Origin: Candidatus Heimdallarchaeum aukensis
Lineage (GTDB): Archaea; Asgardarchaeota; Heimdallarchaeia; Heimdallarchaeales; Heimdallarchaeaceae
NCBI GenBank assembly: GCA_021513695.1
Contig: CP084166.1
Coordinates: forward strand, 2,912,001-2,976,000
DNA: 64,000 nt
Direction: 5' to 3'
In this document: positions 14,339 through 51,327 of the stretch, piece after piece
Layout of the letters: every line of letters begins with the position of its first letter
Numbering within the stretch: the first letter of the stretch is position 1
Notes under the pieces: model-generated
Databases searched by the model: none
What the model was told of the DNA's origin: nothing
Seen by the model: only the letters and a program-made list of their open reading frames with translations
Made by a program: the position numbers and the translations under genes

Positions 14339-14746
14339 CTTAACACCCCAAAATAAAGTTTCTCAGAAATAATATTTAAAAATTACTAATTAAGTAATCG
14401 AGCTGAAATTTTTTTCTATTCTCTTTTTAGAACTTACTAATGATTCTTTTTTCCTTTTTCAGAAAAATTGTTATAATTGGCTGATGATTATAAATCTTAA
14501 AATCGAATATAGATACATTCAGAACTAAAGTTGTAATTATCTTTTAATTGATTTTATTTCATCTCATTCCACTTCATTTAATTTCATTTAATTTCAGTCT
14601 CAATGTTAAGCTAAAAAAGAGAGAATAGGATTCAATTAAAACAATTTTTCTTTCTTTTTTTAAAGCAGAATTTCTTCATTTTCTTATTAGTTTTAAAAAG
14701 TCTAAGATTCAATATTAGTTCTTTTCACTTTTGTTGAAAGTAAGTG

Positions 14747-15712
14747 TCATTTTTTCTTTTCAGCATTTTTTATGGCTACTATTTCTGCAGCTATACTTAT
14801 TGCTATTTCTTCTGGAGTTATACTGTTAATACTTATTCCTATTGGAGAGTGAACTTTTTCTAGCAATTCATCAGATATTCCTTTTTGCTTTAGATTCTCA
14901 AAAAGTTTCTTTTTCTTTGACTTACTAGCCATTAAGCCTATGTATTTGAATTTTTTATGGATAAGTTTTTCTAAAACCAATTCGTCGTACTTATGTCCAA
15001 ACGACATAATAGTTACATACACATTATTTCCTTCTGGTACATATTTTTCTATTTCTTCATAATCTATTACTTTTTTCACATTTGCGTAGTTATTGTTTTT
15101 CATTGTATCGAGATTTTCTCTATTGTCATAAACCGTAATATGGAAATCCAACGTTTTCATTATTCTAGAAAAGGCTAAAGATACATGTCCTCCTCCTACG
15201 ATTATTAATCTATTTCTCAAGCCTATATTTTCTTTAAATGTCCATTTTTCTCCTTCTTCTATGAATTCGTACTGCTTTTCTGACATTTTATCCAGTTCTA
15301 TTTTTAGTCCTTTTTCATTTATTGTAATTATTGCTTGTTCCGCCTTGTTATAAGCGTTTATTATTTTTTGTACTTCACTTTTATCTTTTTCAACTATAGG
15401 AACTATTGCAAACGTTTGTGTTCCTGAGCATACCATCCCTGATTTATGTTCTCCTCCTTTTTCATTATGTATCATAAACTCTTTTTCTGTAGTAAAGTCA
15501 TTTTTTCTTAGTTTTTCTTTCGCTCTTTCTATTAGTTGATATTCCGATAAGCCTCCACCCACTGTTCCTTCTGCTTTTTCTAGTGTTACAAACATTTTTG
15601 CTCCTTCTGCATTGGGAGCTGAACCTTTTCTTTCTATTATTTCTACTAGAACAACGTTTGAGCCTTTTTGAAGCTCAGATAATACACTTTTCCAAAACTT
15701 TTCATCATTCAC
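14747..15712 (-). CDS. xdhC: XdhC/CoxI-family molybdoenzyme maturation factor
   Basis: N-terminal SAPNAEGAKMFV...GTVGGG (XdhC_CoxI) and a C-terminal Rossmann segment LIIVGGGHVSLAFSRIM. Confidence 0.7.
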   Translation of the reverse strand: MNDEKFWKSVLSELQKGSNVVLVEIIERKGSAPNAEGAKMFVTLEKAEGTVGGGLSEYQLIERAKEKLRKNDFTTEKEFMIHNEKGGEHKSGMVCSGTQTFAIVPIVEKDKSEVQKIINAYNKAEQAIITINEKGLKIELDKMSEKQYEFIEEGEKWTFKENIGLRNRLIIVGGGHVSLAFSRIMKTLDFHITVYDNRENLDTMKNNNYANVKKVIDYEEIEKYVPEGNNVYVTIMSFGHKYDELVLEKLIHKKFKYIGLMASKSKKKKLFENLKQKGISDELLEKVHSPIGISINSITPEEIAISIAAEIVAIKNAEKKK

Positions 15713-15730
15713 GTTTCATCACTTTAGATT

Positions 15731-17989
15731 TTAAGAATTATTTTCATATAGGTAAAGTAAAAGTTTTTCTGGCGTTAATGGAGCCGAGTAAACCCATTCT
15801 TTATCTTTCCTAAATGCTCTTGTAGCGTTTTTTATAGCAAAATATGCTCCGATTCCGTACATGAATGGTGGCTCTCCTATAGCTTTAGATTTTAAAACTG
15901 CTTCTGGATTTTCTGCATTTTCTAGAAACTTCACCTTTATTTCGGGGGTGAATGGAAGATTTGGTACTTTATACGTTGCAAAGGAATTTGTCAAGATATG
16001 TCCTTCTTTGTACATTAGTTGCTCTATTGTCATCCACCCTATTCCTTGAAGTAACCCTCCTTCTGTTTGTCCTAAATCAACCAGATAATTTATACTCTTT
16101 CCTGCATCATGAACAATTGTTACTTTATCTATTGTATATGTTCCTCTTAAGCAATCTATTGTTACTTCTGTTAATGCTGCTCCAAAAACGTGGTAAGCAA
16201 AGGGTTTTCCTTTCTTTTCTTCTTTGTTAAAGAATATTTTAGGTGTAGCATACAAAGCTTGACTTGAAAGATTTACTCTACTCATGTATGCTGAATTTAC
16301 AAGTTCATTCCAACCTAGTTCTGTTTTCTTTCCTTTAACATATACATAATCTTCTTTTATTTCTATTTCCTCTGGTTGAACTTGAAGTTTCTCAGAAGCT
16401 ACTTTTTTCAGTCTTTCTACCAATCTATTACAAGCTATCTCTGCTGCCTTCCCATTCAAATCAGCCCCTGTACTCGCTGCTGTGGGTGAGGTGTTGATCA
16501 CTCTTGTTGTATTCGTACTTTCTATTCTTATTCTTTCAGGGTCTATTCCGAGAGCTAATGAAACTATGTGTCTAATTTTAACATTTACTCCTTGTCCCAT
16601 CTCTATGGCTCCAGTGCTTACACTTACGCTCCCATCTTTGTAAATATTCACTAGCGCTCCTGCTTGATTTAGAAAAGTACTTGTAAACGAAATGCCAAAG
16701 CAAATTGGCATGATTGAGAGACCTTTTTTCATGTACTTGTTCGATTGATTAAATTCTTCTATTTCTTTTTTCTTTTGTTCAAAATTCGTTTCTTTTAGTA
16801 GTTCTTCGAAGCTTCTTCTTGCATTTGATCTTTCTACTTTTTGCCCATAATGAAACTCGTCTCCTTCATTTAACAGATTTTTCTCTTGTAGAACATGTTT
16901 TGGAACACCCATTACTTCTGCAGCTTTGTCAATGGCTGCTTCTATCAAGAACATTCCTTGTGGTCCTCCGAACCCTCTAAAGGCTGTGAAAGGAGGTAAG
17001 TTTGTTTTACATGGATAACCTGTTACTTTTACATTTGGGATATAATATGAATTAGTAGAATGGAAAAGAGTTCTACTTAAGATAGCTGTTGATAGATCAG
17101 CACTTGCTCCAGAGTTCTGGTAAATAGATGCTTCAAAAGCTATAATTTTTCCCTCTTTTGTTAGACCTATTTTGTAATCACTTGAGTAGGGGTGTCTTTT
17201 TCCTGTCATCTGTATATCTTCTTTTCTGTTTAGAACAAGTTTTACTGGCCTTTTTGTATGGTATGCACCTAAAGCGCAAATAGCTGCCCACTGTGTAGCT
17301 TGATCTTCTTTTCCACCAAACCCTCCTCCTATTCTCTTAACATCTACTTCTATCTTATTCATATCTAAACCGAGTATTTTTGCTGTTGTACCTTGAACAG
17401 TAGTGGGAGCTTGAGTGCTGGAATAGATAAGAATCTTATCATTTTCATCAGGAATAGCTAATGCTGCTTGAGTTTCAAGATAAACGTGTTCTTGTCCTCC
17501 ATTTTCTACTGTTCCTTCAATAATAACATCACATTTTTCCCAAGCTGCATCGACATCTCCATTTGAAAGAGTATTAGATGGAGCAATAAAAAGACCTTTT
17601 TCTGCTGCTTCTCTCGGATCAAAAACTGCAGGAAGTTCTTCATACTCTATTTCTACCAACTTACTTGCATTTTTAGCTTGTTCTTTTGTTTCAGCTAAAA
17701 TTATCGCTATCGGTTGTCCTACGAATTCTACTTCGTCTTCTACTAATAGCACTTCATCTTGAATAATTCGCCCTAATTGATTTTCTCCAGGAATATCTTT
17801 AGAAGTAAGAATCTTGCATACTCCGGGGCTCTTTTCAGCTTTTTCTAAATTTAATTTAACTATTTTTCCGTGAGGAATTGTTGAAGTAAAAACAAATGCA
17901 TGTAACAAATTAGATGGTTCTGGTAAATCATCTACATACAAAGATTCTCCTTTTGTATGAGGAGCTAAAAATTCTTTAATTATTTTCAT
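15731..17989 (-). CDS. xdhB: xanthine dehydrogenase/aldehyde oxidoreductase family molybdopterin-binding subunit
   Basis: Contains the RIGGGFGGKED Mo-cofactor motif and an N-terminal a/b hammerhead region (752 aa). The 4-bp overlap with the upstream gene suggests translational coupling. Confidence 0.85.
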   Translation of the reverse strand: MKIIKEFLAPHTKGESLYVDDLPEPSNLLHAFVFTSTIPHGKIVKLNLEKAEKSPGVCKILTSKDIPGENQLGRIIQDEVLLVEDEVEFVGQPIAIILAETKEQAKNASKLVEIEYEELPAVFDPREAAEKGLFIAPSNTLSNGDVDAAWEKCDVIIEGTVENGGQEHVYLETQAALAIPDENDKILIYSSTQAPTTVQGTTAKILGLDMNKIEVDVKRIGGGFGGKEDQATQWAAICALGAYHTKRPVKLVLNRKEDIQMTGKRHPYSSDYKIGLTKEGKIIAFEASIYQNSGASADLSTAILSRTLFHSTNSYYIPNVKVTGYPCKTNLPPFTAFRGFGGPQGMFLIEAAIDKAAEVMGVPKHVLQEKNLLNEGDEFHYGQKVERSNARRSFEELLKETNFEQKKKEIEEFNQSNKYMKKGLSIMPICFGISFTSTFLNQAGALVNIYKDGSVSVSTGAIEMGQGVNVKIRHIVSLALGIDPERIRIESTNTTRVINTSPTAASTGADLNGKAAEIACNRLVERLKKVASEKLQVQPEEIEIKEDYVYVKGKKTELGWNELVNSAYMSRVNLSSQALYATPKIFFNKEEKKGKPFAYHVFGAALTEVTIDCLRGTYTIDKVTIVHDAGKSINYLVDLGQTEGGLLQGIGWMTIEQLMYKEGHILTNSFATYKVPNLPFTPEIKVKFLENAENPEAVLKSKAIGEPPFMYGIGAYFAIKNATRAFRKDKEWVYSAPLTPEKLLLYLYENNS

Positions 17990-19362
17990 AATTTAACCTC
18001 CATTTCAGGAAATAATGTCATAAAATGCGCAATAATTAATTGACGAACTAGTAGTCTTTTGTATTTTGCACTTCCTCTTACATCACTTATAGGACTTATT
18101 TCTGAGTCAGCTATTTCTAACGCTTCTCTAACTACTTCAGAATTAACCTCTTTATCATTTAGAAAGTTTGAAGTTTTTTCTAAATATTTAGGAACGGGAG
18201 CTACTCCTCCTACAGATAAATGGACATTCTTGATCTTATTTTCTTCTTTTTCAAACGATATTGCGCTGTTTACACTTGCTATATCTACATATTTTCGCAT
18301 AGCTACTTTTTCAAAATTGAAAAATCTCTTTTTTGATTTAATTCTTAACGATTCTACCACTTCTCCTTCTTCTAAATCCATTTGTTTGTATCCTTTGTAA
18401 AAATCTTTAAGAGGTAGAATTCTACTTTTTTCTCCTTTTCTCAATGATATTTCTGCTCCTAATCCTAAAAAATAGATTGTTAAATCTCCTATTGGAGACG
18501 CATTAACTAGGTTCCCTCCTAAAGTCGCTCTTATTCTTATTGGTAACGCAGAAACAACTCTTAAATCATTCTTTATATCAAAAAGCTCATTCAACTCTTC
18601 TGATAAGCGAATATCTTCCATACTCGCTAAAGCACCAATGTAAATATACCCATCTTCTTCCCAAATATCGTTTCTAATTTGCAGTTGAGACAGAAAAACA
18701 GGTTTTTCTATTTTCTCTCTTTGAACAAGTAAATCTGTTGCTCCTGCGACATTTGTTCCTTTACCATTTGATTCTAATTTTTCATTTAATTTCTCTAATT
18801 TTTCATGTATATTTTTAAAATATTCAGGAATAACGCCTAATTCAATTAGATAATTAACTCTCGCCGAATAATTAAGATCTTCTACTTTTATTTTTTCAGC
18901 TATTTTTTCTGCAGCACGCTTTATTGCTGCATAAGTTCCACATCTACACAAATTACCTTCAATTGCTGTTAAGATATCTTCTTTTACAAAAATTTCATTT
19001 AAGAAAAATCCAGTCAAACTCATAACAAAACCAGGAGTGCAAAATCCACACTGTGAAGCTCCTTCCTCCACTATTGCTTCTTGAATTGGAGTTAACTTTT
19101 CTTGATTTATTCCTTCAATAGTTACAACATGTTTTCCTATTATTTCTCCTAGAGGTAATATACAAGAAGTAACAGCTTTATATTTTACTGTAGATTCTTC
19201 CATTTCTCCAAGTAAAATCATACAAGCGCCACATTCTCCTTCATGACAAGCTTCTTTTACTCCAGTGAATCCTTTTTTTCTTAAAAAATCTAAAGTTGAA
19301 CTTCCTAAAGGAGCATCTATTTCTTCAATTTTGTTATTTAGTACGAACTTCATTTTTTTCAC
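17986..19362 (-). CDS. xdhA: xanthine dehydrogenase family 2Fe-2S + FAD-binding subunit (fused small/medium subunits)
   Basis: 2Fe-2S motifs CHEGECGACM, QCGFCTPGF and NLCRCGTY are followed by a CO-dehydrogenase-flavoprotein-like FAD domain. Confidence 0.85.
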   Translation of the reverse strand: MKKMKFVLNNKIEEIDAPLGSSTLDFLRKKGFTGVKEACHEGECGACMILLGEMEESTVKYKAVTSCILPLGEIIGKHVVTIEGINQEKLTPIQEAIVEEGASQCGFCTPGFVMSLTGFFLNEIFVKEDILTAIEGNLCRCGTYAAIKRAAEKIAEKIKVEDLNYSARVNYLIELGVIPEYFKNIHEKLEKLNEKLESNGKGTNVAGATDLLVQREKIEKPVFLSQLQIRNDIWEEDGYIYIGALASMEDIRLSEELNELFDIKNDLRVVSALPIRIRATLGGNLVNASPIGDLTIYFLGLGAEISLRKGEKSRILPLKDFYKGYKQMDLEEGEVVESLRIKSKKRFFNFEKVAMRKYVDIASVNSAISFEKEENKIKNVHLSVGGVAPVPKYLEKTSNFLNDKEVNSEVVREALEIADSEISPISDVRGSAKYKRLLVRQLIIAHFMTLFPEMEVKL

Positions 19363-19519
19363 TGTTTTCTATTCTACCAAACATATCATAGCTCAAAGTT
19401 TACCTTTTAATGAGCTATAATATACTCTATTTATTACAAAGTTTCTAATTTTACGATATAAGTCTTATTAATCAAACAATTTATTTTCTTATTTTTTATG
19501 CAAGTGATTTGTTTTTCAA

Positions 19520-20758
19520 TTATTGAGTTTCGAACATCTTAACTATTTCTTCTTTTGAATATGACTTACTTGAGATAACTCCTTCTACAGCTTTAATATC
19601 TTTTAATCCATTTCCAGTTACAGCGACACAGACAGAATCTTCTTTTCTTATTTTTCCTTCTTTTATTAATTTTTTCAATCCTGCATATGGTGCTACAGCA
19701 GCTGGTTCTGCAAATAAGCCTGTTTCTTTTCCTAATTCTGAAATTGCTTCCAATATTTCTTCATCACTTACAGTCACATAGTATCCTCCACTTTCAGCGA
19801 CATATTTACAAGCTTTAATTACATCCCTTGGTGTTCCCACACTTATACTATCGGCAACTGTTGAGCCTTTAATTGGATGAGGAGTATAAGGTTCTCCTTT
19901 GTCAAAAACATGTTTAATTGCAGCTATTCCTTCTGCTTGTACTCCTATTATTTTAGGTATTGATTCTATTAATCCTATTTCCTTAAACTCTTTAAAACCC
20001 TTATACAGAGAACTTACTACTGTTCCATCTCCCACTCCTACAAGAACATAATCTGGAACTTTGAAATCATTTTGTACTGCAATCTCAAAGGCTCCCGTTT
20101 TTTTTCCCTCCAACAAATAAGGATTTATTGCTGCATGTCTGCAATACCACCCTTTCTTCAACCCAAGTTCCAAAGATAGATCATAAACTTCATCATATGT
20201 TCCTTCTACAGCGAAAACTTTTGCTCCTGATATTTCTAGTTGAGCTCTCTTTCCTCCGGGTATAGTTGAGGGGACGAAAATATAAGTTTCCATGGGCGTA
20301 TGAGCATTTAGCATAGCTAAAGAAGAGGCAGCATTACCTGTTGAAGCACAGAAAACAGTATCATTTTTTTCATCCAGAGCCATATTTATTGCTATTGAAC
20401 TTGCTCTATCTTTGTAAGAACTTGAAGGATTAGACCCATCATATTTTAACATTAAATCTTTTAAACCCAGTAAATCGAATTTATATAAGGGAGTTCCTCC
20501 TACATAGGGATCAAATTTTCCTTTTGCCTTTGTTGGTAAAAGAAAATCAAATTGATACATTGAAGCTTTTTTATAGAAATTCTTCTGAACTACGACGGGG
20601 TTCTCTTTTATCTTTTCATAGTCATAGATCACTTCAAGTGTACCCATAATTGGTCCACATTTTTCACAGAAGTATAGTCCTGGTCTAGGTTCATATTCTT
20701 TTTTGCAAGAAATGCAACGAAGGAAGTAGCTGCTCATTTGAATTCCTCTTTTTTTCAT
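19520..20758 (-). CDS. threonine-synthase-like fold-type-II PLP enzyme with an N-terminal Cys4 zinc ribbon
   Basis: N-terminal CISCKKEY...CEKCGP plus the PLP-lysine motif SNPSSSYKDRAS. The position inside the catabolic cluster suggests a non-ThrC role. Confidence 0.55.
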   Translation of the reverse strand: MKKRGIQMSSYFLRCISCKKEYEPRPGLYFCEKCGPIMGTLEVIYDYEKIKENPVVVQKNFYKKASMYQFDFLLPTKAKGKFDPYVGGTPLYKFDLLGLKDLMLKYDGSNPSSSYKDRASSIAINMALDEKNDTVFCASTGNAASSLAMLNAHTPMETYIFVPSTIPGGKRAQLEISGAKVFAVEGTYDEVYDLSLELGLKKGWYCRHAAINPYLLEGKKTGAFEIAVQNDFKVPDYVLVGVGDGTVVSSLYKGFKEFKEIGLIESIPKIIGVQAEGIAAIKHVFDKGEPYTPHPIKGSTVADSISVGTPRDVIKACKYVAESGGYYVTVSDEEILEAISELGKETGLFAEPAAVAPYAGLKKLIKEGKIRKEDSVCVAVTGNGLKDIKAVEGVISSKSYSKEEIVKMFETQ

Positions 20759-21837
20759 GTTAATACTCCACTAATTGCATCATAAGGACAACGAGATTCG
20801 CATAAACCGCACTGGATGCATTTGTTTTTGTCAACAATAATTTTTCCATCCTCTGATAATGCTCCAGCAGGACATATTTTCACGCAAAGACCACATAATG
20901 TGCACTTTTCATTAAATTCTGGAAAATTATTCTCTTTTTCTTCTTCAACTCTGAAAATAGTCTCCTTCCTTACTTTTCTTATTTCCTCAATTGATGAGAA
21001 ACCATACTTTTCCAATGCCTTAGGTAGATCTTTCACTATTTTATCGTAAAGATATCTCCCTTTAATTAAAGCGGAAGAAAGCATTTGAACCAAATCAGCT
21101 CCTGCAAAAATGAACTCTAACACATCTTCAGCTTTTGCTATTCCTCCTACTCCAATAATTGGTAAATCAGGAAAAGCTTTTCTTATATGATATACTCTAT
21201 GCAAAGCTATAGGTTTGATAGCTGGTCCACTGATCCACACTTCATCTCCAAGTAAGAGAGAACGGTTCTTTAGATCTACTGCAGTAGCTGGTCCTAAAGA
21301 GTTTATTGCTACTATTCCTGTAGCTCCAGCGTCAATTACTGTTTTTACGAAACCCAGATAGTCTGTTACATGAGGGCTGAGTTTCATAAAAATAGGTTTA
21401 TCTGTATTTTCCCTTATACTTCTCACGATTCCATCTAGATTTTCTTTGACATAATGTGTTGAAATTTCAAAGAAATCAGCAAAAGGGTCTAGCTTTGGAA
21501 TTAAATATCTAAAGTCTTCTTCTACATATCCTGCACTTATAATCAGTGGTTTATTTTTTTCCGAGTGAACTTTCGGTAGAATAGTTTCTATCCATTCATC
21601 AGAATGAAGTTCTGACCATAATTCTCTGTTATAAATTGTGTTTGATGTACCAGCTATACAAGGTTTCTTTACTACTGCTCCTTTTATTGAAATGGTTTTT
21701 GAGACCATGTAACCACAAGAATTGTTATTAAAAAACAGCATATTCTCTAATCCTTCACATAACGGTCCAGCAGCAGGACCTAAAGGGTTTGAAAATTTTT
21801 TTCCTAATAGTTCTATTGACAGATCCATTTTTTTCAC
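20755..21837 (-). CDS. dihydroorotate/dihydropyrimidine dehydrogenase (PreA/PydA)-family TIM-barrel flavoenzyme with a C-terminal 2x[4Fe-4S] ferredoxin domain
   Basis: A class-1 DHODH-like N-terminus with two CxxCxxCxxxCP motifs (CTLCGLCVKICP and CIQCGLCESRCP). Overlaps the upstream gene by 4 bp. Confidence 0.7.
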   Translation of the reverse strand: MKKMDLSIELLGKKFSNPLGPAAGPLCEGLENMLFFNNNSCGYMVSKTISIKGAVVKKPCIAGTSNTIYNRELWSELHSDEWIETILPKVHSEKNKPLIISAGYVEEDFRYLIPKLDPFADFFEISTHYVKENLDGIVRSIRENTDKPIFMKLSPHVTDYLGFVKTVIDAGATGIVAINSLGPATAVDLKNRSLLLGDEVWISGPAIKPIALHRVYHIRKAFPDLPIIGVGGIAKAEDVLEFIFAGADLVQMLSSALIKGRYLYDKIVKDLPKALEKYGFSSIEEIRKVRKETIFRVEEEKENNFPEFNEKCTLCGLCVKICPAGALSEDGKIIVDKNKCIQCGLCESRCPYDAISGVLT

Positions 21838-21844
21838 TTTCCAA

Positions 21845-23155: not shown

Positions 23156-23162
23156 AATAGTC

Positions 23163-24494: not shown

Positions 24495-24588
24495 TAATTT
24501 GATTTTAAATTTTTCACAAATATAGTTTTGGTTGAGTTTCTGTTTTCAATACAAACAATTTAATATATATTTTATTTTTTACTAATTA

Positions 24589-26052: not shown

Positions 26053-26067
26053 ACAAAAAAAGAAAAA

Positions 26068-27924
26068 TTATTTTTTTCTTTTTAATTTTTTAACTCTGGC
26101 CAGTTTGCGAATAAAATAAAGAAATGTCACGAGAAAAACTATCCCAAAAGTTGGTGCATAGAAAATAAAGTCATTAGTATAAATAAAAAGATCAATGTTA
26201 TCATTAAAGCCATCAAAATCTGTATCTTTAGAAAAGGGATTTGTTCTTTTATTATATTCTTTGGCATTCGAAACCCCATCGTCATCAAAATCTTCATTCC
26301 CATCATTAACACCGTTATTATCACTGTCAATACAAGTAGGAGAAGTGTTGAGACATGAAATTTCATAACCATCAGGAAGAGAATCATTATCTGTATCCTT
26401 TTCAGCAACATTAGTTCCGTACAAATGCTCGCTATAATCAGATAAGCAATCATTATCTTGGTCTACTGCTAAAGAGCTCCCTCGTTGTAACGAATTACCT
26501 CTTGCTGTTCCCCAATAGATCCTTTTTCCTGTTAATCCTTGAGAGAAATCGTAGGCATAAATACCTAATCCTGACCAAAGAAGAATGACTTCATTTTCTC
26601 CATCATTATCTAAATCAACAATGGCGCCTGTATCTACAATATCTACAGAATCAAGTCTTTCTTCACTAGATGGATTGCTTATCTTCCATAAAGTTTCACC
26701 TGTTTTACCATTTAAAGCATAGTAAGATTCACATCCACCAATTAGCACATCAAGTCTATTATCATTATTGAGGTCGCCTATTAGAGGAGTTGAAAAAGTA
26801 ATGTAGAAGCAATCACAATCTGGAATATTAAGAGATTTTCCAAATTTAAAAGACCAAATAAGTCTTCCTTTTAAACCATCAAGCACATATAATTTTCCAT
26901 CTTCGCTTGTGAATATTATATCTAGAACGCCATCACAGTTCAAATCTCCTAAAGATGAACGACTACCTATATTACCTCCAGTCATATACTCCCAAATCTT
27001 TCTTCCTGACTCAGCATCTATAGCATAGAAGAAATCATTATTTGATCCAACAAAAATTTCTAGTTTTCCATTCTCATCTACATCTGCAATTAATGGAGTT
27101 TTGAGAGTGTTATCTTTAGAATCTTTTTTCACAAAACTATGTTCCCAAAGTAGAGTATGGGTTTTTCCATCAACCGCTAACAGACTATCTAAATAGGTTC
27201 TAACAATAATATCATCGCATCCATCATCATTCAAATCCGTAACAGCAATAGTTCCAGATATGATTCGATAATCTTCATACTTCCATAATTCTGTTCCATT
27301 TTCAGGAGAAAGGCTAACAATTCCTCCTGGGTTGATTTGTTTATCCTTTTTCGAAGAAGAATAAGAAACTAAAACCTCTTGCTTTAAGTCATTATTTGTA
27401 TCTCCAAGTAGAGCATTACCAATATTATCTCCTGGAGGACTATAAGACCATATATTTGTAGAATCTTTCTCAAAAGCATATACAGTTCCATTTAAACCCA
27501 CGCTTAAAATAATTTCAAGTTCATTGTCCTTGTCTAAATCAAAAAGGTTAGCGCCGTAACACCATACAGTGGGAAACCAACAGCTTTCACATGTAAAGTT
27601 TTTACTCCAAAAAATGGAACCATTTAATCCATTAAGAGCGAATAAACCTAGATCACTAATACCTACTAGAACATCTAAGTTGTTATCATTGTTTATATCA
27701 ACAAATGAAATATCACCATAATTAGGAGATGGATTAATTAATCTCCATAAAACCTTATAATTACTATCGTTGAAAGAGGAGCTTCTAATACCAATGTTAT
27801 GTGTATTATTTGATTTACAAAAAGGAAAATCAAGTGCAACTGTAATATTTTTAATTGAAATAAAAGATAGTAACACAAAAAGTATTGTTGTTAAAAGAAG
27901 AATTTTTCTTTTATATATCGTCAT
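26068..27924 (-). CDS. cell-surface protein with a 7-8-blade FG-GAP (integrin-alpha-like) beta-propeller, thrombospondin-type-3-like Ca-binding repeats and a C-terminal TM anchor
   Basis: A signal peptide. Repeated D-x-N/D-x-D-G-x-x-D/E motifs (DINNDNNLDVLVG, DLDKDNELEIILS, DLNDDGCDDIIV, DVDENGKLEIFVG, DLNCDGVLDIIFT, DLNNDNRLDVLIG, DLDNDGENEVILL). A C-terminal DTDNDSLPDG/DSDNNGVNDGNEDFDDDGVSN/DTDFDGFND stretch is followed by a TM helix and RKLARVKKLKRKK. Confidence 0.65.
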   Translation of the reverse strand: MTIYKRKILLLTTILFVLLSFISIKNITVALDFPFCKSNNTHNIGIRSSSFNDSNYKVLWRLINPSPNYGDISFVDINNDNNLDVLVGISDLGLFALNGLNGSIFWSKNFTCESCWFPTVWCYGANLFDLDKDNELEIILSVGLNGTVYAFEKDSTNIWSYSPPGDNIGNALLGDTNNDLKQEVLVSYSSSKKDKQINPGGIVSLSPENGTELWKYEDYRIISGTIAVTDLNDDGCDDIIVRTYLDSLLAVDGKTHTLLWEHSFVKKDSKDNTLKTPLIADVDENGKLEIFVGSNNDFFYAIDAESGRKIWEYMTGGNIGSRSSLGDLNCDGVLDIIFTSEDGKLYVLDGLKGRLIWSFKFGKSLNIPDCDCFYITFSTPLIGDLNNDNRLDVLIGGCESYYALNGKTGETLWKISNPSSEERLDSVDIVDTGAIVDLDNDGENEVILLWSGLGIYAYDFSQGLTGKRIYWGTARGNSLQRGSSLAVDQDNDCLSDYSEHLYGTNVAEKDTDNDSLPDGYEISCLNTSPTCIDSDNNGVNDGNEDFDDDGVSNAKEYNKRTNPFSKDTDFDGFNDNIDLFIYTNDFIFYAPTFGIVFLVTFLYFIRKLARVKKLKRKK

Positions 27925-28046
27925 TAATCTATTATTAAAAAAAGCGTATATTAATATTAACTATCCAAGCTTACAAATTTAAACTCTTTAAAAAATGAAA
28001 AGAGAATATAAAAAATTTTAATTTACTAGGAAGAAAATTTCTTTTT

Positions 28047-29021
28047 TTATCCCATTGTTAGCCACATAACTGCTTTTGCTGTATGTAACCTATTTTCTGC
28101 TTCATCATAGATAACAGAATTTGGTCCATCTATTACTGAATCTTCTACCTCATTTCCCCTATCAGCTGGTAGAGCGTGCATGTAGATTACATCTTTTTTG
28201 GCTAGTTTCATCATCTCTTCTGTACATTTCCAGTCTTTGAATTGAGAGATATCTACATCTCCTTTTTTACCACTCCAGCTTCCCCAGTTTTTAGGTATGA
28301 CAACGTCTGCGTCTCTATAAGCTTCTTCCATATCATGTGTTATTCTAAATGATCCTCCATTTTCTTCAGCATTCTTTCTTGCTTCTTCTATAACCCAATC
28401 TGGCATCTCAAATCCTTCAGGGTAAGCTAAAGTCACATCCATTCCATATCTTGGGAAAAGTAAACTTTGTGTAAGTGGTACTGAAATGGGTTTCTTATGT
28501 GATGTAGCATAAGCCCAGATTATTGAAACTTTGAGGTTTTTTGTTTCTTTTTTCTTTTCAATAATTGTCATAAGGTCAGCTATTCCTTGCATTGGATGAT
28601 AAAGGTCATCTTGTAGACTCATAATAGGCACTCTTGAGTGTTTAGCCATGTCGTTCAAATATTTATTTCCAATTCCCCAGAAGCAGTTTCTGCAAGCTAT
28701 TGCATGGCCATATCTTGAAAGTACTGAAGCAGTATCTTTTGCTACTTCTCCATGAGATATTTGCATTGTAGAAGTATCAAGATAATTAGCATGTCCTCCC
28801 AACTGAGCTATTCCTGCTTCCATAGAGTTTCTGGTTCTTGTAGATTGTTCAAAAAACATCAAAAAAATCGTTTTATATGGCAGATAAGGTGTAGGTTCTC
28901 CTTTCAAGAATTTCTCTTTTAACTCAAAAGACACTTCTAGTAAAGTATCTATTTCTTCTTTTGTCCAATCACGTAATGTGATGAAATCTTTTCCTCTTAA
29001 TTTAGATCTCATATTTCTCAC
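28047..29021 (-). CDS. YgeW/ornithine-carbamoyltransferase-family carbamoyltransferase
   Basis: STRTR carbamoyl-phosphate motif, HPMQ, and HALP in place of HCLP. Confidence 0.8.
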   Translation of the reverse strand: MRNMRSKLRGKDFITLRDWTKEEIDTLLEVSFELKEKFLKGEPTPYLPYKTIFLMFFEQSTRTRNSMEAGIAQLGGHANYLDTSTMQISHGEVAKDTASVLSRYGHAIACRNCFWGIGNKYLNDMAKHSRVPIMSLQDDLYHPMQGIADLMTIIEKKKETKNLKVSIIWAYATSHKKPISVPLTQSLLFPRYGMDVTLAYPEGFEMPDWVIEEARKNAEENGGSFRITHDMEEAYRDADVVIPKNWGSWSGKKGDVDISQFKDWKCTEEMMKLAKKDVIYMHALPADRGNEVEDSVIDGPNSVIYDEAENRLHTAKAVMWLTMG

Positions 29022-29042
29022 CTATTTTTTTTCTTTTTATTT

Positions 29043-30248
29043 CTATTCTTTCTTCATCATTTCAGAATATTTCATTGGAATTAATGCATAAACCGCTGTA
29101 GCAATATCTAACTCTTTCTTAAACGTTTTTTCGTTAGGTGCATGAGCTTCTTCCTCATGTCCAGGACCAAAGCCTATGCAAGGAACATTGTGCATTCCCA
29201 TAATATATACTCCATTTGTGGAGAATGTCCATTTATCTAAAAGTGGCTTCTTTCCCATTATTTCTTCTGCGGTTTCTACCATCATCCCACAAAGAGGATG
29301 ATCTTCTTCTAAAACCCAAGTGGGGAAATAGCTATCCACTAGAGTGCGATAGCCAGTGTAAGAAGGTTCATTGTATGTGTACATTTCTACTTTTGCATTG
29401 TATTTTTTCACAGAAGGAAGATTTTTGATTTCATTTAGAGCTGTTTCTTTTGTTTCTCCAAAAGTTAACCTTCTATCTACTGATATGCTACATCCATCTG
29501 CTACAGCGCATCTTGATGGTGAACTTGAAAATATTTCTGTTACAGTTAAAGAGCCTTTTCCTAGAAACTCATCATTTTTTAGATCTCCATGTAGTTTTTC
29601 CAACTCTTGAATGATTTTAGCCATTTTATAGATAGCATTTTCTCCTCTTTCTGGAGCAGAACCATGAGCACTTATTCCTGTGGTTGTTACTTTTATTTCC
29701 ATTCTCCCTCTCTGTCCTCTGTTTACTTTCAAGGATGTTGGTTCAGTTAAAACTACAAATTCAGGTTCAATAACTTTTTCAGTCAAAATATGGTGCCAAC
29801 ATAGTCCATCACAGTCTTCTTCCTGAACAGAGCCTACTATCCAAACAGTGGTGTCCCCGACTATATCTAAATCTTTGATTATTTTTCCAGCATAGACCAT
29901 ACAAGCAAAGCCACCCTCTTGATCACTTGCTCCTCTTCCATAGATTATTTCGTCGTCTTCATATCCTTCATAAGGATCGTGTGTCCAGTTTTCTCTATTT
30001 CCCACGTCTACAGTGTCGATATGTGCGTCAAAAGCTATAACATGTTTTCCGTTTCCTATCCTTCCTAGAATGTTACCCATTTTATCTATCTTTATCTCAT
30101 CATAACCTAATTTTTCCATTTCTTGCTTTATACGTTCAATTAGTTCTTTTTCTTTCCCACTTGTACTGGGAATGCGAATCATATCCCTTAGGAATTTATA
30201 CATATCTTTTTTGTATTCTTCAATTTTTTCCATTACTTTATCTTTCAT
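29043..30248 (-). CDS. M20 family metallopeptidase/deacylase (YgeY-like)
   Basis: [12 protein letters not shown] and VQEEDCDGL metal-ligand motifs, and the position next to the carbamoyltransferase. Confidence 0.8.
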
Positions 30249-30257
30249 TTTTAACCC

Positions 30258-32903
30258 TCATCTTTTTTTTCTAGCTATAGGGAGCTCTGTTCTCCACTTT
30301 CCATCATATTGATAGAACGCGCCTGTTACTGCTCCTGCAGTTGGTACTAAACCTATTTCTCCCACACCCTTTGCTCCAAAACCACCAATTTCTTCAGGTT
30401 CTTCAATTATTATTACTTCTATTTCTGGAGTATCTTTAGCCTTTAATATTTGCAGATCTCTAATTTTTAATGAAACTGGAACACTCTTTGTTGTTGGAAA
30501 GTCCTCTGATAAAGTGTGACCTAAACCCATATGTATTCCTCCTTCTATCTGACCTGCAACAGCCAAAGGATTTACTGCTCTACCCACATCGTGAGCAGCC
30601 AGTATTTTCTTCAGTTTCCCGTTTTCATCAAGAAAAGCTACTTGAACTGCATAACTGAAAGCTAAATGTGTAATTGGGTTATCTACTGGGGTACCTGGCT
30701 TAACTGTTATGTTGGTAACATACTCACCATGATACTCTTTTCCTACTAATTCCTTAGGAGAGTGGTTTTTTAGGTCTTCTGCAAGTTTTTCTGCAGCATA
30801 CTTTGCCGCCATAGTATCAAGTGCTGTTGCTCTTGAAGCAGTTGTCATTCCACACTTTGTTTTATCGTAACTTATCGATTTTACATCCATCTTTGAAGGG
30901 TGGATATTTGTTAATTCGCTAACTGCTTGCGTTAAAACAGTAAATAATCCTTGTCCCATTTCAGTAAAACCAGTCAATATTTCCAACCTTTCGTCTTCAA
31001 GAACACGGATTAATACTCTACCTGTATCTTCGAGAGCGTTACCTATTCCTGTGTTTTTGATTCCACAAGCGATACCTTTTGGTCCTTTATAATTCTTATA
31101 CTGCTCTTTAACTGCATCTAAACATTTCTGTAAACCAACAACTGTTTTTGTCATTATTTGTCCAGTAGCAAAACGTTTTCCTTCTCTCAAGATGTTTCGT
31201 TCTCTTATATCAAAATCATCTATTTCCTTTCCATCATCCCTCATCATCGCAGCAATCATGTTTAAACATGTTTCTATTGCAAAAGAGGTTTGATTTACTC
31301 CAAATCCTCTCATAGCTCCACAAGGAGGATTATTAGTGTAAACAGCTGTTGCATCTACATCTATTGCAGGCAAATAATATGGACCGCATGAGTGCCCTGC
31401 AGCACGTTCAACTACAGCTCCTCCAACAGAAGCATAAGCACCAGTATCGCCTATTATCCTTATTCTTGCTCCAGTTAGCTTACCATTTTCATCAGCTCCA
31501 ACTTCATATCGCATAATCATTGGATGGCGTTTAGGATGCATTCTCAAAGATTGCTCCCTAGTTAGAACTGTTTTCACTGGTTTCTTCAAGAGATAAGCTG
31601 CAAGAGCTGTTTGGGCTTGAACAGACAGATCTTCTTTACCTCCAAAAGCTCCCCCATTTGTTACCAGTTCAACTATTACATTCTCTTTTTCTAATCCTAG
31701 CACTTCTGCTATTTGTCTCTGATCTTCATGTACTCCTTGCCCTTGACTATAAACATGTACACCTTTGTCTGTGGGTAAAGCAAGCGAAGCTTCTACTTCT
31801 AGAAAAGCATGTTCTATTCTTTGAGTTCTAAATTCTTGTTTAACAAAATATTTTGAATTCCTAAAAGCTTCTTCCACATCTCCCCTGCTGAAAACAGTTC
31901 GGCTGAGTATATTACCGCTTTCATGTATTTTTTCAGCTGTAGTGTCCATAGCTTTTATAGGGTCATCTAAAGGTTCGAGTACCTCATATTCCACCTTAAT
32001 TTTTTCTACTGCTGCACGTGCATGAAACATACTATCTGCTACTACCATAGCTATTACATCGCCAACATAGCGAGTTGTTTCTCCTTCATCTACAAAAATT
32101 GGCCAATCAGGAATAATATGACCAATGAATCTTTTTCCAGGGACATCTTTAGCAGTAAGTATTTTGACTACACCGCAAGCTTTTTCTGCTTCTGTAAGGT
32201 CAATTTTCTTTATTACTGCTCTAGGGTGTTCACTCAATAAAAATGCTCCATGAAGCATTCCTTCTACTTTCATATCAGCAATATATGGTTTTTGACCTAG
32301 AGCCATGTCTAGACCACGATATCTTTTTGTACTATAACCTACTCCATCTTTCTTTGGTTCATATTCTCTCTTTAAACCATATTTTTCTCCAAAGAAATCT
32401 GCTCTTCGTGGAGGATCATCAACATTAACGGGAGTTTTTGTTTTCCAATGTTCCTCTGCTGTTTCTATCGCATCTATAATACGTTGATAACCTGTACATC
32501 TACATAAATTAGGACTTAATGCCCTAGCTTTCTCTTCTCTTGTAGATTTTGGATGAGTGTCAAGAAAAGACTTTATCCTTAACATAATTCCAGGTGTGCA
32601 GAAACCACATTGTATTCCTCCCTCTTTAACTAATGCGTTAGCTAATAGCAATTTTTCTTCTTTTTCAAGACCTTCTATTGTTATAATGTTTTTTCCTTCT
32701 ACACTTGATGGATCGCGATTACAAGAAGTCATAGCTTTTCCATCGATTAAAACTGTACATGCTCCGCAGTATCCTTGTCCAGAACATCCATCTTTACAAC
32801 TGGTGATATCACATTTTTCTCTTAAAACGTCTAATAAACTCATACCTTCTTCATATTCTATTGTAATTTCTTCTCCATTAAGAATAAATGTTGTTTCTTT
32901 CAT
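30258..32903 (-). CDS. XdhD-like fused 2Fe-2S + molybdopterin-binding xanthine-dehydrogenase-family oxidoreductase
   Basis: An N-terminal CKDGCSGQGYCGACTV / QCGFCTPGIM / NLCRCTGY domain is followed by the Mo domain with GGAFGGKED (881 aa). Confidence 0.85.
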   Translation of the reverse strand: MKETTFILNGEEITIEYEEGMSLLDVLREKCDITSCKDGCSGQGYCGACTVLIDGKAMTSCNRDPSSVEGKNIITIEGLEKEEKLLLANALVKEGGIQCGFCTPGIMLRIKSFLDTHPKSTREEKARALSPNLCRCTGYQRIIDAIETAEEHWKTKTPVNVDDPPRRADFFGEKYGLKREYEPKKDGVGYSTKRYRGLDMALGQKPYIADMKVEGMLHGAFLLSEHPRAVIKKIDLTEAEKACGVVKILTAKDVPGKRFIGHIIPDWPIFVDEGETTRYVGDVIAMVVADSMFHARAAVEKIKVEYEVLEPLDDPIKAMDTTAEKIHESGNILSRTVFSRGDVEEAFRNSKYFVKQEFRTQRIEHAFLEVEASLALPTDKGVHVYSQGQGVHEDQRQIAEVLGLEKENVIVELVTNGGAFGGKEDLSVQAQTALAAYLLKKPVKTVLTREQSLRMHPKRHPMIMRYEVGADENGKLTGARIRIIGDTGAYASVGGAVVERAAGHSCGPYYLPAIDVDATAVYTNNPPCGAMRGFGVNQTSFAIETCLNMIAAMMRDDGKEIDDFDIRERNILREGKRFATGQIMTKTVVGLQKCLDAVKEQYKNYKGPKGIACGIKNTGIGNALEDTGRVLIRVLEDERLEILTGFTEMGQGLFTVLTQAVSELTNIHPSKMDVKSISYDKTKCGMTTASRATALDTMAAKYAAEKLAEDLKNHSPKELVGKEYHGEYVTNITVKPGTPVDNPITHLAFSYAVQVAFLDENGKLKKILAAHDVGRAVNPLAVAGQIEGGIHMGLGHTLSEDFPTTKSVPVSLKIRDLQILKAKDTPEIEVIIIEEPEEIGGFGAKGVGEIGLVPTAGAVTGAFYQYDGKWRTELPIARKKR

Positions 32904-33514
32904 TGTTCATTCACATACTTTTTCCATTCTTCTAAAGTGTTTAGATTAAGTGTAACTTTTCTATCATTAACATTAATAATACGCACTTCATCATTTTTTT
33001 CTATTTTCTTTAATTCATAATCTAACCTATGATCGCTAGAACAAGACAATATATGATCAATAAACTTAGGAGATAGAAAGACAGGATGACCTTTTTTTCC
33101 TTTAAAACTAGGGATTACTGCAGAAACACCTTCAACCGCTTCAAGTATCTTGAACCAAGTCTCCTTATCTGGGCAAGATACATCAATTGGTAAAACAAAG
33201 GCTCCTTCATCACTAAACTCTCTCACTTTTTTTAATCCACATTGAATAGAAAAAAACTGACCTTTTTCTGTTTGTAAATTTCTAACGAGTATTTCTTTTC
33301 TTAATTTTGGAACTAGATCAACATAAAGATCATAATCTTTTCCAAGAACAATAACTATCTTTTCAAAACCAATCTCTTTTAGCTTTTCTATTTGGTTTTG
33401 TATAAAAAAAGTTCCTTTATAATCTAACAATCCTTTAGGTTTTCCCATTCTCCTTGAATCCCCTGCAGCAAGAATAATAACAGGAGGAAAAAAAAGATCT
33501 CTTTTCACATTCAA
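32900..33514 (-). CDS. mocA: MobA-like NTP transferase, molybdenum cofactor cytidylyltransferase (MocA/YgfJ-like)
   Basis: VIILAAGDSRRMGKPKGLL signature. Overlaps the XdhD-like gene by 4 bp. Confidence 0.75.
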   Translation of the reverse strand: MNVKRDLFFPPVIILAAGDSRRMGKPKGLLDYKGTFFIQNQIEKLKEIGFEKIVIVLGKDYDLYVDLVPKLRKEILVRNLQTEKGQFFSIQCGLKKVREFSDEGAFVLPIDVSCPDKETWFKILEAVEGVSAVIPSFKGKKGHPVFLSPKFIDHILSCSSDHRLDYELKKIEKNDEVRIINVNDRKVTLNLNTLEEWKKYVNEQ

Positions 33515-36626: not shown

Positions 36627-37034
36627 ATTTACTTACTTTCTTATTTTTTTATTAATGACTAATTTTAGAATAACAACAAAAAATAAGATGGATAGATTCA
36701 AAAATTAATATAAAATGTGAATGGAGATATTCTTGTACATCAGGTAAGCATTTCTAAATGTTTCGTGCATTTAGATATTCTAAAAAGGAGAAAATAAAAG
36801 CGCTGAAACAGGAGAAAAAGTGAGTAAAAAGTATAGATCTCGCAAAAATCATTTCATTCTAGTGAAAATTGAAATTTAGCAAAAGAAGAAAATTTGTTAG
36901 TAATCTTATAGGAAAGATATAAAAGCATCTCAGTTTAGTTGGAATTAAGATTCCATATGTCATTAGTGATTTTTCTATACTTTTTTAAACAGTTTAATTT
37001 TCATTGATTTAAAAAAGTAAAACTTGTGATTTAA

Positions 37035-42868: not shown

Positions 42869-42877
42869 GTAATTATC

Positions 42878-51319: not shown

Positions 51320-51327
51320 ATCCTCAC

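Follow-up and report, generated by a model that had tools for sequence, protein, structure and literature searches.

In the reductive urate pathway described in 2025, XdhD/DOPDH converts urate to 2,8-dioxopurine (Li et al., 10.1101/2025.05.19.654654; Liu et al., 10.1101/2025.04.24.650524). The dearomatizing step of 2,8-dioxopurine is carried out by YgfK or, in C. difficile, by the PF01180-type UacX (Li et al., 10.1101/2025.05.19.654654). SsnA and HyuA open the rings to give 2,3-diureidopropionate, one ureido group of which is taken by YgeW (with the carbamate kinase YqeA, giving ATP) or by the hydrolase UacY and the other by YgeY, and the pathway ends with YgeX, which converts 2,3-diaminopropionate to pyruvate. 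The literature disagrees on which ureido group is cleaved first and on the stereochemistry of the intermediates, and a commentary describes the pathway as confined to anaerobic bacteria. Here, we analyzed a gene cluster at positions 14747-33514 of a 64-kb stretch of DNA (the window) that exact-sequence look-up assigned to the Asgard archaeon Candidatus Heimdallarchaeum aukensis (UJG40734.1 and neighbors), whose circular genome measures 3.08 Mb. Based on its predicted proteins and on homologous loci, this cluster likely encodes a variant of the reductive 2,8-dioxopurine route of purine/uric-acid fermentation, in which a ThrC-like lyase would stand in for YgeX and the core of which would come from Bacillota-like bacteria.

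The pathway itself is known, and the replacement of YgfK by UacX is already established in bacteria; the archaeal host and the proposed terminal enzyme pair without YgeX would be new. Neither Li et al. nor Liu et al. mention archaea or threonine-synthase-like enzymes, a literature search found no archaeal report of the reductive urate pathway, and the Ca. H. aukensis genome paper leaves purines, xanthine, and molybdenum unmentioned. Li et al. (10.1101/2025.05.19.654654) scored "YgeX" and "YgeW" in gene neighborhoods by Pfam family alone (PF00291 and PF00185, respectively), and a variant lacking YgeX would therefore be hidden in such scoring.

Gene content and proposed route

Using open reading frame (ORF) listing and Pfam/NCBIfam scans, we identified 12 co-directional genes on the minus strand and one gene on the opposite strand between positions 14747 and 33514. 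They are listed below with the domains or family models on which each description is based; PLP, pyridoxal phosphate; FAD, flavin adenine dinucleotide; FMN, flavin mononucleotide; MoCo, molybdenum cofactor; XDH, xanthine dehydrogenase.

32900-33514, minus strand: MocA/MobA-like NTP_transf_3 nucleotidyltransferase (PF12804, E=4e-27)
30258-32903, minus strand: XdhD/DOPDH-like Mo hydroxylase, 881 aa, with 2x[2Fe-2S] and MoCo domains (TIGR03311)
29043-30248, minus strand: YgeY-type M20 amidohydrolase (TIGR03526)
28047-29021, minus strand: short YgeW-type carbamoyltransferase, 324 aa (OTCace_N and OTCace domains)
26068-27924, minus strand: beta-propeller/Ca-binding-repeat surface protein, 618 aa (PQQ_2 and FG-GAP matches)
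24589-26052, plus strand: CysK/CBS-fold PLP enzyme, 487 aa, here called PALP487 (PF00291)
23163-24494, minus strand: HyuA-like cyclic amidohydrolase, hydantoinase/dihydropyrimidinase-like (Amidohydro_1)
21845-23155, minus strand: SsnA-like aminohydrolase (best matches, PRK07203 and TIGR03314)
20755-21837, minus strand: UacX/PydAc-like reductase with DHO_dh (FMN) and 2x[4Fe-4S] (PF01180, E=3e-35, and Fer4)
19520-20758, minus strand: ThrC-like PLP enzyme (PF00291 and TIGR00260)
17986-19362, minus strand: XdhA, 2x[2Fe-2S] and FAD subunit (Fer2, Fer2_2, FAD_binding_5, and CO_deh_flav_C)
15731-17989, minus strand: XdhB, Mo-binding subunit (TIGR02965 score and XDH motifs)
14747-15712, minus strand: XdhC-family Mo-cofactor insertion/maturation factor (XdhC_CoxI and XdhC_C domains)

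Within suboperons, the intergenic gaps are −4 to 21 bp (4-bp overlaps or 7- to 21-bp spacing), and the gaps are wider at 27924-28047, 24494-24589, and 19362-19520, which suggests that the cluster is transcribed as three or four units. Because the gaps are tight and the same set recurs in 7 more Heimdallarchaeota species and in >50 bacterial loci, the gene arrangement is not due to chance. An earlier reading of the window made from the letters only (the sequence-only reading) had listed these genes and their domains; all are ORFs where it had placed them, and Pfam/NCBIfam agree with its domain assignments, but its list left out the beta-propeller gene at 26068-27924. Its comparison with the anaerobic purine/urate island of E. 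coli (ygeW-ygeY-ssnA-hyuA-xdhD) held up, with 60% identity for YgeY and 29 to 35% for SsnA, HyuA, and YgeW, and the top homologs from unrelated pathways that it had named as counterevidence were not seen. It had also correctly taken the genome as AT rich and archaeal (GC content, ~0.30).

By tblastn with E. coli queries, the 64 kb gave no match to YgfK, YqeA (carbamate kinase), YqeC, or YgfM, no credible YgeX (one 54-aa alignment, E=0.003), and for YqeB only a partial match to the XdhC-family gene; Pfam scans did not find a carbamate kinase among the other large ORFs of the window either. The missing YgfK and carbamate kinase had been pointed out in the sequence-only reading, and its suggestion that the PreA-like protein substitutes for YgfK agrees with C. 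difficile UacX (Li et al. 2025, 10.1101/2025.05.19.654654). Pfam/NCBIfam scans revealed no enzymes matching the classic Rabinowitz clostridial purine pathway or the aerobic uricase route, and we rejected both. Rfam and tRNA scans of the window were empty, with no purine riboswitch.

The cluster has in common with C. difficile-type clusters (XdhD without YgfM, UacX, SsnA, HyuA, UacY, YgeY, and YgeX) a FAD-less Fe-S/Mo enzyme, a PF01180 plus [4Fe-4S] reductase beside SsnA, HyuA and YgeY homologs, and a presumed ferredoxin-type electron supply. It differs from them by having a carbamoyltransferase instead of the hydrolytic UacY, ThrC-derived and CysK/CBS-like PLP enzymes instead of YgeX, a FAD-containing XdhAB-XdhC in the same gene string, and an archaeal host. 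With the E. coli locus (ygeW-ygeX-ygeY-hyuA-yqeA...mocA-ygfK-ssnA-ygfM-xdhD) and that of C. sporogenes, it shares MocA, an XdhD-type enzyme, SsnA-like and HyuA-like enzymes, YgeY, and a YgeW-related enzyme as well as the logic of two reductions, two ring openings, and two ureido cleavages; unlike the E. coli locus, the window is without YgfK, YgfM, YgeX, YqeC, and a carbamate kinase, and YqeB is matched only partially.

In the route that we propose, XdhAB, matured by XdhC and MocA, would oxidize hypoxanthine and xanthine to urate, and the FAD-less XdhD/DOPDH-like Fe-S/Mo enzyme would reduce urate to 2,8-dioxopurine. The UacX-like FMN/[4Fe-4S] reductase would dearomatize 2,8-dioxopurine, probably with ferredoxin as the donor, after which the SsnA-like enzyme would open the reduced purine ring and the HyuA-like enzyme the hydantoin ring to give 2,3-diureidopropionate. 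One ureido group would be phosphorolyzed by the short YgeW-type carbamoyltransferase to carbamoyl phosphate, from which a carbamate kinase encoded elsewhere would generate ATP, and the other would be hydrolyzed by YgeY, leaving 2,3-diaminopropionate. The final beta-elimination to pyruvate and NH3 would fall to the ThrC-derived PLP enzyme, which is predicted to be without the phosphate site of threonine synthase, possibly with assistance from PALP487, e.g., as a racemase or second lyase. Starting from hypoxanthine, the route would be redox neutral, with 4 electrons released by XDH and 4 electrons entering the two reductases. Curated equivalog thresholds back two of these steps (YgeY and the TIGR03311 enzyme), and the others are assigned by synteny and subthreshold homology. 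We note that positions 39146-42699, 6 to 9 kb from the cluster, encode an IorA/IorB-type 2-oxoacid:ferredoxin oxidoreductase (thiamine pyrophosphate and 4Fe-4S; POR gamma-like subunit) together with a ketopantoate-reductase-family dehydrogenase. That the IorAB-type enzyme supplies reduced ferredoxin to the FAD-less reductases is speculative.

Among the molybdenum enzymes, XdhAB is of the two-subunit type, with Fe-S and FAD domains fused. XdhA scored 324 against TIGR02963 (cut-off, 467), and XdhB scored 833 against TIGR02965, just under the cut-off of 849.5; they are 57% and 66% identical, respectively, to the homologs in the Asgard locus L005, where XdhA has the same position. XdhB carries three hallmark XDH motifs, GGGFGGKE, FRGFGGPQ, and GEPP, which correspond to bovine E802, R880, and E1261. 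From these comparisons, we propose that XdhAB is a canonical xanthine dehydrogenase. The XdhC-family protein is under the NCBIfam cut-offs and 49% identical to its L005 homolog. The MocA-like protein, with a score of 105 against TIGR03310 (cut-off, 186), is a candidate molybdenum-cofactor cytidylyltransferase for XDH-family enzymes; its gene overlaps the XdhD-like gene by 4 bp, and the same position is filled in 6 other Heimdallarchaeota loci.

The XdhD-like protein scored 896.9 against TIGR03311 ("selenium-dependent XDH"; cut-off, 830.45) and has no FAD domain; its Fe-S/Mo architecture is the one reported for the DOPDH of C. sporogenes (Liu et al. 2025, 10.1101/2025.04.24.650524). We propose that it reduces urate to 2,8-dioxopurine, i.e., that it has 6-dehydroxylase activity. 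It is 25% identical to E. coli XdhD, is without the exact strings GGGFGGK and GEPP, and carries GGAFGGKE and GVGEIG; its nearest non-Asgard relatives, with 57 to 60% identity, are from Acidobacteria and Gemmatimonadota. In E. coli XdhD, E606 was suggested to orient urate (Li et al. 2025, 10.1101/2025.05.19.654654). We did not use this residue as a diagnostic of urate 6-dehydroxylation when assigning function, because the GEGK insertion in which it lies is missing here and the local alignment is uncertain. The XdhD-type GEGK insertion with E606 sits in the clostridial XDH2 "MoCo2" subunits of L003, L008, and L009 (e.g., L003 12400-14685). The urate 6-dehydroxylase assignment among the two clostridial XDHs may differ from that in Heimdallarchaeum.

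In the ring-processing core, YgeY scored 632 against TIGR03526 (cut-off, 321.5) and has 60% identity to E. coli YgeY and 64 to 67% identity to homologs in clostridial clusters. The SsnA-like protein remained below both of its models (PRK07203 SsnA, 367 with a cut-off of 444; TIGR03314, 334 with a cut-off of 455), and its identity is 29% to E. coli SsnA, 48 to 54% to clostridial homologs, and 68% to another Asgard homolog. Its gene lies directly upstream of that for the UacX-like protein, 7 bp apart, and this synteny is conserved; in C. difficile-type clusters, UacX likewise co-localizes with the SsnA neighborhood (Li et al. 2025, 10.1101/2025.05.19.654654). The UacX-like protein has two CxxCxxCxxxC motifs and no FAD/NAD domain, and it is 54 to 56% identical to homologs in clostridial clusters. 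By its architecture and position beside SsnA, it matches the UacX of Li et al., and we propose that it replaces YgfK. The motif N.SCP(H/N), searched as a dihydroorotate dehydrogenase (DHODH)/DPD-type pattern, was found in none of five UacX-like proteins (window, L003, L005, L008, and L009). The HyuA-like protein scored 307.6 against TIGR02033 (cut-off, 393), its position is conserved among homologous loci, and it is 29% identical to E. coli HyuA and 44 to 46% identical to homologs in clostridial clusters.

The carbamoyltransferase scored 264 against the ornithine carbamoyltransferase (OTC) model TIGR00658 (cut-off, 281) and 189 to 201 against YgeW models (cut-offs, 453 to 500). It retains the carbamoyl-phosphate motifs STRTR and HPxQ, and its best PDB match is P. 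furiosus OTC; its sequence PKNWGSW aligns with the ornithine loop DVWASMG of that enzyme, and the DxxxSMG loop of OTCs is not present. With E. coli YgeW, to which it is 35% identical, it has in common PK.W, WAY..S..KP.SVP, and MH.LPAD, and it is without the YgeW insertions and C-terminal extension (~70 residues). Identity to homologs in clostridial clusters is 74 to 77%. We read it as a minimal YgeW. The YgeW-like protein of the sequence-only reading is therefore specified here as a short 324-aa YgeW-type form that is under the YgeW and OTC cut-offs.

The PydAc/PreA architecture of the UacX-like protein and the best NCBIfam match of the HyuA-like protein, dihydropyrimidinase, would also fit a cluster that degrades pyrimidines or another N-heterocycle in a reductive Pyd-like manner, with the XDH-family enzymes serving other hydroxylations, e.g., of the nicotinate type. 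The subthreshold scores of SsnA and HyuA and one Chloroflexi locus in which both PLP enzymes are paired with a pyrimidine-nucleoside phosphorylase lean the same way. Pyrimidine degradation would, however, not need an SsnA-like enzyme beside the reductase, a carbamoyltransferase with YgeW motifs, or two XDH-family enzymes, and the YgeY with its 60% identity to the E. coli protein is far over the equivalog cut-off. The xanthine-specific motif set is complete in XdhB. Deaminases for adenine and other nucleobases are encoded in homologous bacterial clusters, and where a variant has a true YgfK-like reductase, the downstream genes are the same. We consider pyrimidine or other N-heterocycle degradation improbable.

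PLP enzymes proposed in the place of YgeX

The ThrC-like protein scored 193 against TIGR00260 (cut-off, 167) and for this reason carries the automated name "threonine synthase." We aligned it with 37 cluster-linked homologs and four crystallized ThrCs (PDB 1UIM, 2ZSJ, 6CGQ, and 2D1F) and additionally checked the members at L077-L079, which are from Chloroflexi, Acidobacteria, and Gemmatimonadota. At positions invariant in the four crystallized ThrCs, ASTGNT is changed to ASTGNA, NPxR(L/I)EGQKT to NPY(L)LEGKKT, and PVGNAGN to VGDG; these changes are present in all cluster-linked homologs checked (37 plus L077-L079) and in none of the four solved ThrCs. In T. thermophilus numbering, they correspond to T88A, R160L, Q164K, and N188D, with the N154-S155 pair shifted or changed. 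The PLP lysine (K116) is retained in the ThrC-like protein, and the lysine is also retained in the cluster-linked homologs. In T. thermophilus ThrC, T88, N154, S155, R160, and N188 are presumed ligands of the substrate phosphate; a literature search found no source for this. The loss of Arg and Thr and the gain of Asp would be consistent with a leaving group that is no longer an anionic phosphate but ammonium or neutral.

In a neighbor-joining tree, the ThrC-like family formed a clade separate from true ThrCs. It has the fold, PLP-lysine motif, and N-terminal Zn-ribbon type of class I threonine synthase and differs from it in the conserved residues and in that its gene is always embedded in XDH/purine-catabolic clusters. 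There is a 4-bp overlap between the ThrC-like and UacX-like genes of the window, and in every context examined, the ThrC-like gene adjoins XDH genes. In Marinitoga sp. 1137 (L007 10001-16088), translational coupling links the ThrC-like gene to genes for XDH subunits; genes for MoeA, a MoaD/ThiS-like protein, and AOR are nearby, and no HyuA gene lies within 10 kb. This context hints that the tightest partner of the ThrC-like protein is the Mo enzyme and would allow a role tied to that enzyme rather than to diaminopropionate.

Neither of the two PLP enzymes of the window, both of fold type II, gave a significant blastp match (E<1e-3) to E. coli YgeX. Using the carbamoyltransferase to scan a genome collection, we obtained 65 loci, which were annotated by blastp, and YgeX was found in 0 of these 65. 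In the subset of 60 loci whose carbamoyltransferase has at least 69% identity to that of the window, the ThrC-like enzyme was present in 32, the large PLP enzyme in 34, at least one of the two in 39, and YgeX in 0; the counts for the two PLP enzymes are lower bounds, as many contigs are short. Based on this distribution and the residue changes, we propose that the ThrC-derived PLP enzyme is the terminal lyase in YgeX's place. The sequence-only reading had suggested the two PLP enzymes as substitutes for YgfK and carbamate kinase; these they cannot be, and they are instead candidates for YgeX, the absence of which it had overlooked.

These comparisons also bear on whether the neighborhood is coincidental, with XdhAB making urate as an antioxidant and its neighbors being the biosynthetic enzymes that annotation suggests (threonine synthase, ornithine carbamoyltransferase, dihydroorotate dehydrogenase, dihydroorotase, and cysteine synthase). 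The ThrC-like score is over the TIGR00260 cut-off, but every other "biosynthetic" match is under its own; P. furiosus OTC is the best PDB match of the carbamoyltransferase, but the conserved ThrC positions are changed, and so are the SMG loop of OTC and the DHODH-type context. Imachi et al. 2025 report Xdh expression in a cultured Hodarchaeales strain and read it as antioxidant production. Against coincidence, the same 7 to 9 genes occur together, often translationally coupled, in loci from at least 8 bacterial phyla and 8 Heimdallarchaeota species, and in three Asgard loci, XdhAB comes right after the degradative genes and is read in the same direction. We consider a chance neighborhood of biosynthetic genes very improbable indeed.

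PALP487 has the lysine motif TGAHK, and its best NCBIfam match is CysK with 89 bits (cut-off, 351). An AlphaFold2 (AF2) model (predicted local distance difference test score [pLDDT], 79; predicted template modeling score [pTM], 0.86) had as its best PDB folds the catalytic cores of CBS and OASS, with 20 to 26% identity and a TM-score of ~0.5 on the query; this value is due to N- and C-terminal helical extensions of PALP487 that are unmatched and for which structure prediction and the PDB fold search gave no functional clue. Homologs inside loci with pathway genes are 43 to 45% identical in Clostridia, 62 to 68% in Atribacterota, Spirochaetota, and Synergistota, and 53 to 54% in Acidobacteria and Gemmatimonadota. 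PALP487 is ~70% conserved across Heimdall-, Thor-, and Lokiarchaeota, and no purine/urate genes are present near it in the Thor- and Lokiarchaeota loci (L075 8001-9470 and L076 8001-9467). Given these purine-free contexts, we refrain from assigning it a dedicated role in the pathway in Asgard archaea. Its membership in the pathway in H. aukensis is uncertain; it may be an accessory enzyme of the terminal steps. We note that the Thor- and Lokiarchaeota genes adjoin PPDK and unknown genes and that, in a Chloroflexi metagenome-assembled genome (MAG) (L077 5498-9461), PALP487 lies beside a ThrC-like member, a nucleoside-type ABC transporter, and the pyrimidine-nucleoside phosphorylase mentioned above.

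The presence of a second PLP enzyme raises the question of whether the reductive urate pathway has a different end here, with the ThrC-like and CysK/CBS-like enzymes acting on a monoureido intermediate (e.g., by beta-elimination or replacement on 3-ureidoalanine/albizziin) or converting diaminopropionate to serine or cysteine, so that pyruvate would not simply be the product. The occurrence of the two enzymes tracks that of the short YgeW type and the lack of YgeX, enzymes with a CysK/CBS fold typically catalyze beta-replacement, and the ThrC-like pocket has lost polar/basic residues for Ala/Leu and gained an Asp; the disputed cleavage order and stereochemistry leave room for such chemistry as well. 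However, the 60% identity of YgeY to the E. coli enzyme suggests that the same diaminopropionate-forming step is kept, and the finding that Acidaminobacter has only the ThrC-like enzyme and locus L029 neither indicates that two-enzyme chemistry is not obligatory. A different end of this kind seems to us unlikely, though a serious contender, and we continue with beta-elimination of diaminopropionate by the ThrC-like enzyme as the preferred terminal step.

Relatives, origin, and flanks of the cluster

The sequence-only reading had called for a synteny comparison, and the gene order indeed matches Bacillota loci and 7 further Heimdallarchaeota species. In these species, the order is MocA-XdhD-(carbamate kinase)-YgeY-carbamoyltransferase-HyuA; an in-cluster carbamate kinase, 50 to 55% identical to E. 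coli YqeA, is present in three of them (L011, L012, and L014), and in one of these, the SsnA-UacX-ThrC-like-XdhA-XdhB-XdhC half is ~10 kb away on the same contig (L005 and L014). No YqeC was found in Heimdall loci, and YqeB was partially matched by XdhC-like genes there. Ca. H. endolithica and other Heimdallarchaeaceae MAGs contain near-identical copies of the window genes. A second, divergent carbamoyltransferase with 47% identity to the short YgeW lies beside the carbamate kinase of L014 (7412-8269), and several Atribacterota and Spirochaetota clusters have a second carbamoyltransferase copy (27%).

The bacterial loci of the carbamoyltransferase scan are from Bacillota, Atribacterota, Spirochaetota, and Synergistota. 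The central order YgeY-short YgeW-(PALP)-HyuA-SsnA-UacX-ThrC-like-XDH is present in Dethiosulfatibacter, Acidaminobacter, ML8_F1, and ~20 other Bacillota loci. Dethiosulfatibacter aminovorans and the MAG ML8_F1 have XDH1-YgeY-carbamoyltransferase-PLP(~460 aa)-HyuA-SsnA-UacX-ThrC-like-XDH2-adenine deaminase-second deaminase, Acidaminobacter has the same order minus the larger PLP gene, and adenine and other nucleobase deaminases are carried by several homologous bacterial clusters. Identities of the clostridial proteins to those of the window are 44 to 77% for the core genes overall, including 56 to 59% for the ThrC-like enzyme, and 26 to 28% for the Mo subunits. In Acidobacteria and Gemmatimonadota, the XdhD-like gene (58% identity to that of the window at the protein level) heads the cluster and is translationally coupled to a shortened YgfK-like reductase, followed by [HyuA]-SsnA-PALP487-YgeY-short YgeW-ThrC-like; a carbamate kinase follows the ThrC-like gene in the Acidobacteria locus and none does so in the Gemmatimonadota locus. 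Altogether, the gene set including both PLP enzymes is found in at least 7 bacterial phyla (several as MAGs) with either reductase type.

This bacterial variant (Dethiosulfatibacter aminovorans, Acidaminobacter, Fusibacter, and members of other phyla) has the same ThrC-like signature as the window (ASTGNA, NPx..EGKKT, and VGDG). Unlike the window, it has three-subunit XDHs and often adds nucleobase deaminases and a carbamate kinase, and the variants of Spirochaetota, Acidobacteria, and Gemmatimonadota have YgfK-like reductases where the window has a UacX-like one.

In neighbor-joining trees of two genes (carbamoyltransferase and ThrC-like; built without bootstrap values), Heimdallarchaeota were monophyletic inside the UacX-type Bacillota, beside a Peptostreptococcaceae MAG, with Atribacterota, Spirochaetota, Acidobacteria, and others outside the Bacillota group. 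These trees, together with the identities, suggest that the ring-processing core passed a single time from Bacillota-like bacteria to an ancestor of the carrier Heimdallarchaeota, in line with the horizontal acquisition that the sequence-only reading had considered. Because the Mo subunits have just 26 to 28% identity to the bacterial ones, the XdhD-like protein has its affinity with Acidobacteria/Gemmatimonadota, and XdhAB is of the two-subunit type, the data point to a different descent of the Mo enzymes, with both XDHs replaced at the same positions. The comparisons further point to later rearrangements, in which the PLP gene was inverted, the propeller gene was inserted in H. aukensis, and the carbamate kinase was lost or relocated. 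Contamination is unlikely in a circularized genome in which paralogous Asgard genes flank the cluster.

The beta-propeller protein encoded at 26068-27924 has a signal peptide, Asp-rich Ca-binding-type repeats, and a C-terminal transmembrane segment with a basic tail. Its gene is absent in Ca. H. endolithica (L010), where the flanking genes are 36 bp apart, and from all homologous bacterial clusters; it is an unrelated passenger, inserted in H. aukensis only.

The cluster is flanked by an inverted repeat with arms at 11450-14339 and 33782-36671 (2,890 nt, 91% identity), to which two genes correspond.

11495-14338, minus strand: left-arm surface protein, 947 aa (inside the left arm; no Pfam/NCBIfam match)
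33768-36626, plus strand: right-arm surface protein, 952 aa (overlaps the right arm)

The two proteins are 88.5% identical at the amino acid level, and the left-arm protein is 67% identical to a third paralog at 8271-11162. All three of these ~950-aa Asn/Tyr-rich paralogs (66 to 88% identical) have a signal peptide, internal repeats, and a C-terminal transmembrane anchor and are without Pfam/NCBIfam matches; in Ca. H. endolithica, too, paralogs are encoded upstream of the cluster. The paralogs probably form a surface-protein family specific to the lineage. The sequence-only reading had placed the cluster inside an invertible segment. We rejected this as unsupported: the repeats are diverged paralogous surface-protein genes, Pfam/NCBIfam scans revealed no recombinase domain in the flanking ORFs, and no alternative orientation was seen, with the independent assembly L001, which reaches the right arm, having the same orientation beside the MocA-like gene. 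Homologous recombination could in principle invert the region.

Farther from the cluster, an ORF-free stretch at 42850-45870 is a CRISPR array with a repeat period of ~66 to 67 bp and ~45 units, in which a 300-nt block is duplicated at 99% identity (43641-43940 and 44571-44870). A type I-B-like cas operon lies beside the array (46232-55141 and 55307-55945) and encodes Cas1, Cas3, Cas7, a 690-aa protein (Csh1 by UniRef), and a Csa3-like regulator.

Weighing the pathway and its meaning

Several observations weigh against a reductive urate pathway with a ThrC-like lyase at its end. The enzyme functions are predicted from homology and synteny; the SsnA-, HyuA-, XdhA/B-, and MocA-like proteins are under the NCBIfam equivalog cut-offs, and SsnA and HyuA are just 29% identical to the E. 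coli enzymes. E606 of E. coli XdhD, which lies in the GEGK insertion, is not conserved in the XdhD-like protein. By tblastn, the window is without carbamate kinase and YqeC and matches YqeB only partially (SelD was not searched for). The phosphate-ligand role of the changed ThrC residues is presumed, no paper in support having been found, and the ThrC-like gene of Marinitoga has XDH as its neighbor, whereas neither SsnA nor UacX occurs within 10 kb. Finally, PALP487 is encoded on the opposite strand, is missing from the cluster in other Heimdallarchaeota, and occurs across Asgard archaea outside a urate context. We have included these points in judging the pathway likely. The fuller claim, that Heimdallarchaeia ferment purines via a bacterially derived reductive urate pathway with new terminal chemistry, in which a ThrC-derived lyase and a CysK/CBS-like partner replace diaminopropionate ammonia-lyase, is a tentative one that we put forward with more doubt than confidence.

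With these qualifications, the reductive urate pathway would now include Asgard archaea (at least 8 Heimdallarchaeota species), which would have obtained it in an operon-scale transfer from bacteria, with the Mo enzymes replaced in place. We saw the variant, in which proteins annotated as "threonine synthase" and "cysteine synthase" would stand in YgeX's place, in Bacillota, Atribacterota, Spirochaetota, Synergistota, Acidobacteria, Gemmatimonadota, and Heimdallarchaeota. It gives concrete enzyme targets and may bear on the order of ureido cleavage and on the stereochemistry. Imachi et al. 2025 read the Xdh of Heimdallarchaeia as a source of antioxidant urate that supports aerotolerance. Since the XdhAB genes of three Asgard loci come immediately after the degradative ones, our comparison suggests that XdhAB is catabolic, at least in Heimdallarchaeaceae. 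If this is true, xanthine dehydrogenase in Heimdallarchaeia would mark anaerobic purine catabolism and not antioxidant or aerotolerance capacity, and one argument for oxygen tolerance in the archaeal ancestor of eukaryotes would be weakened.

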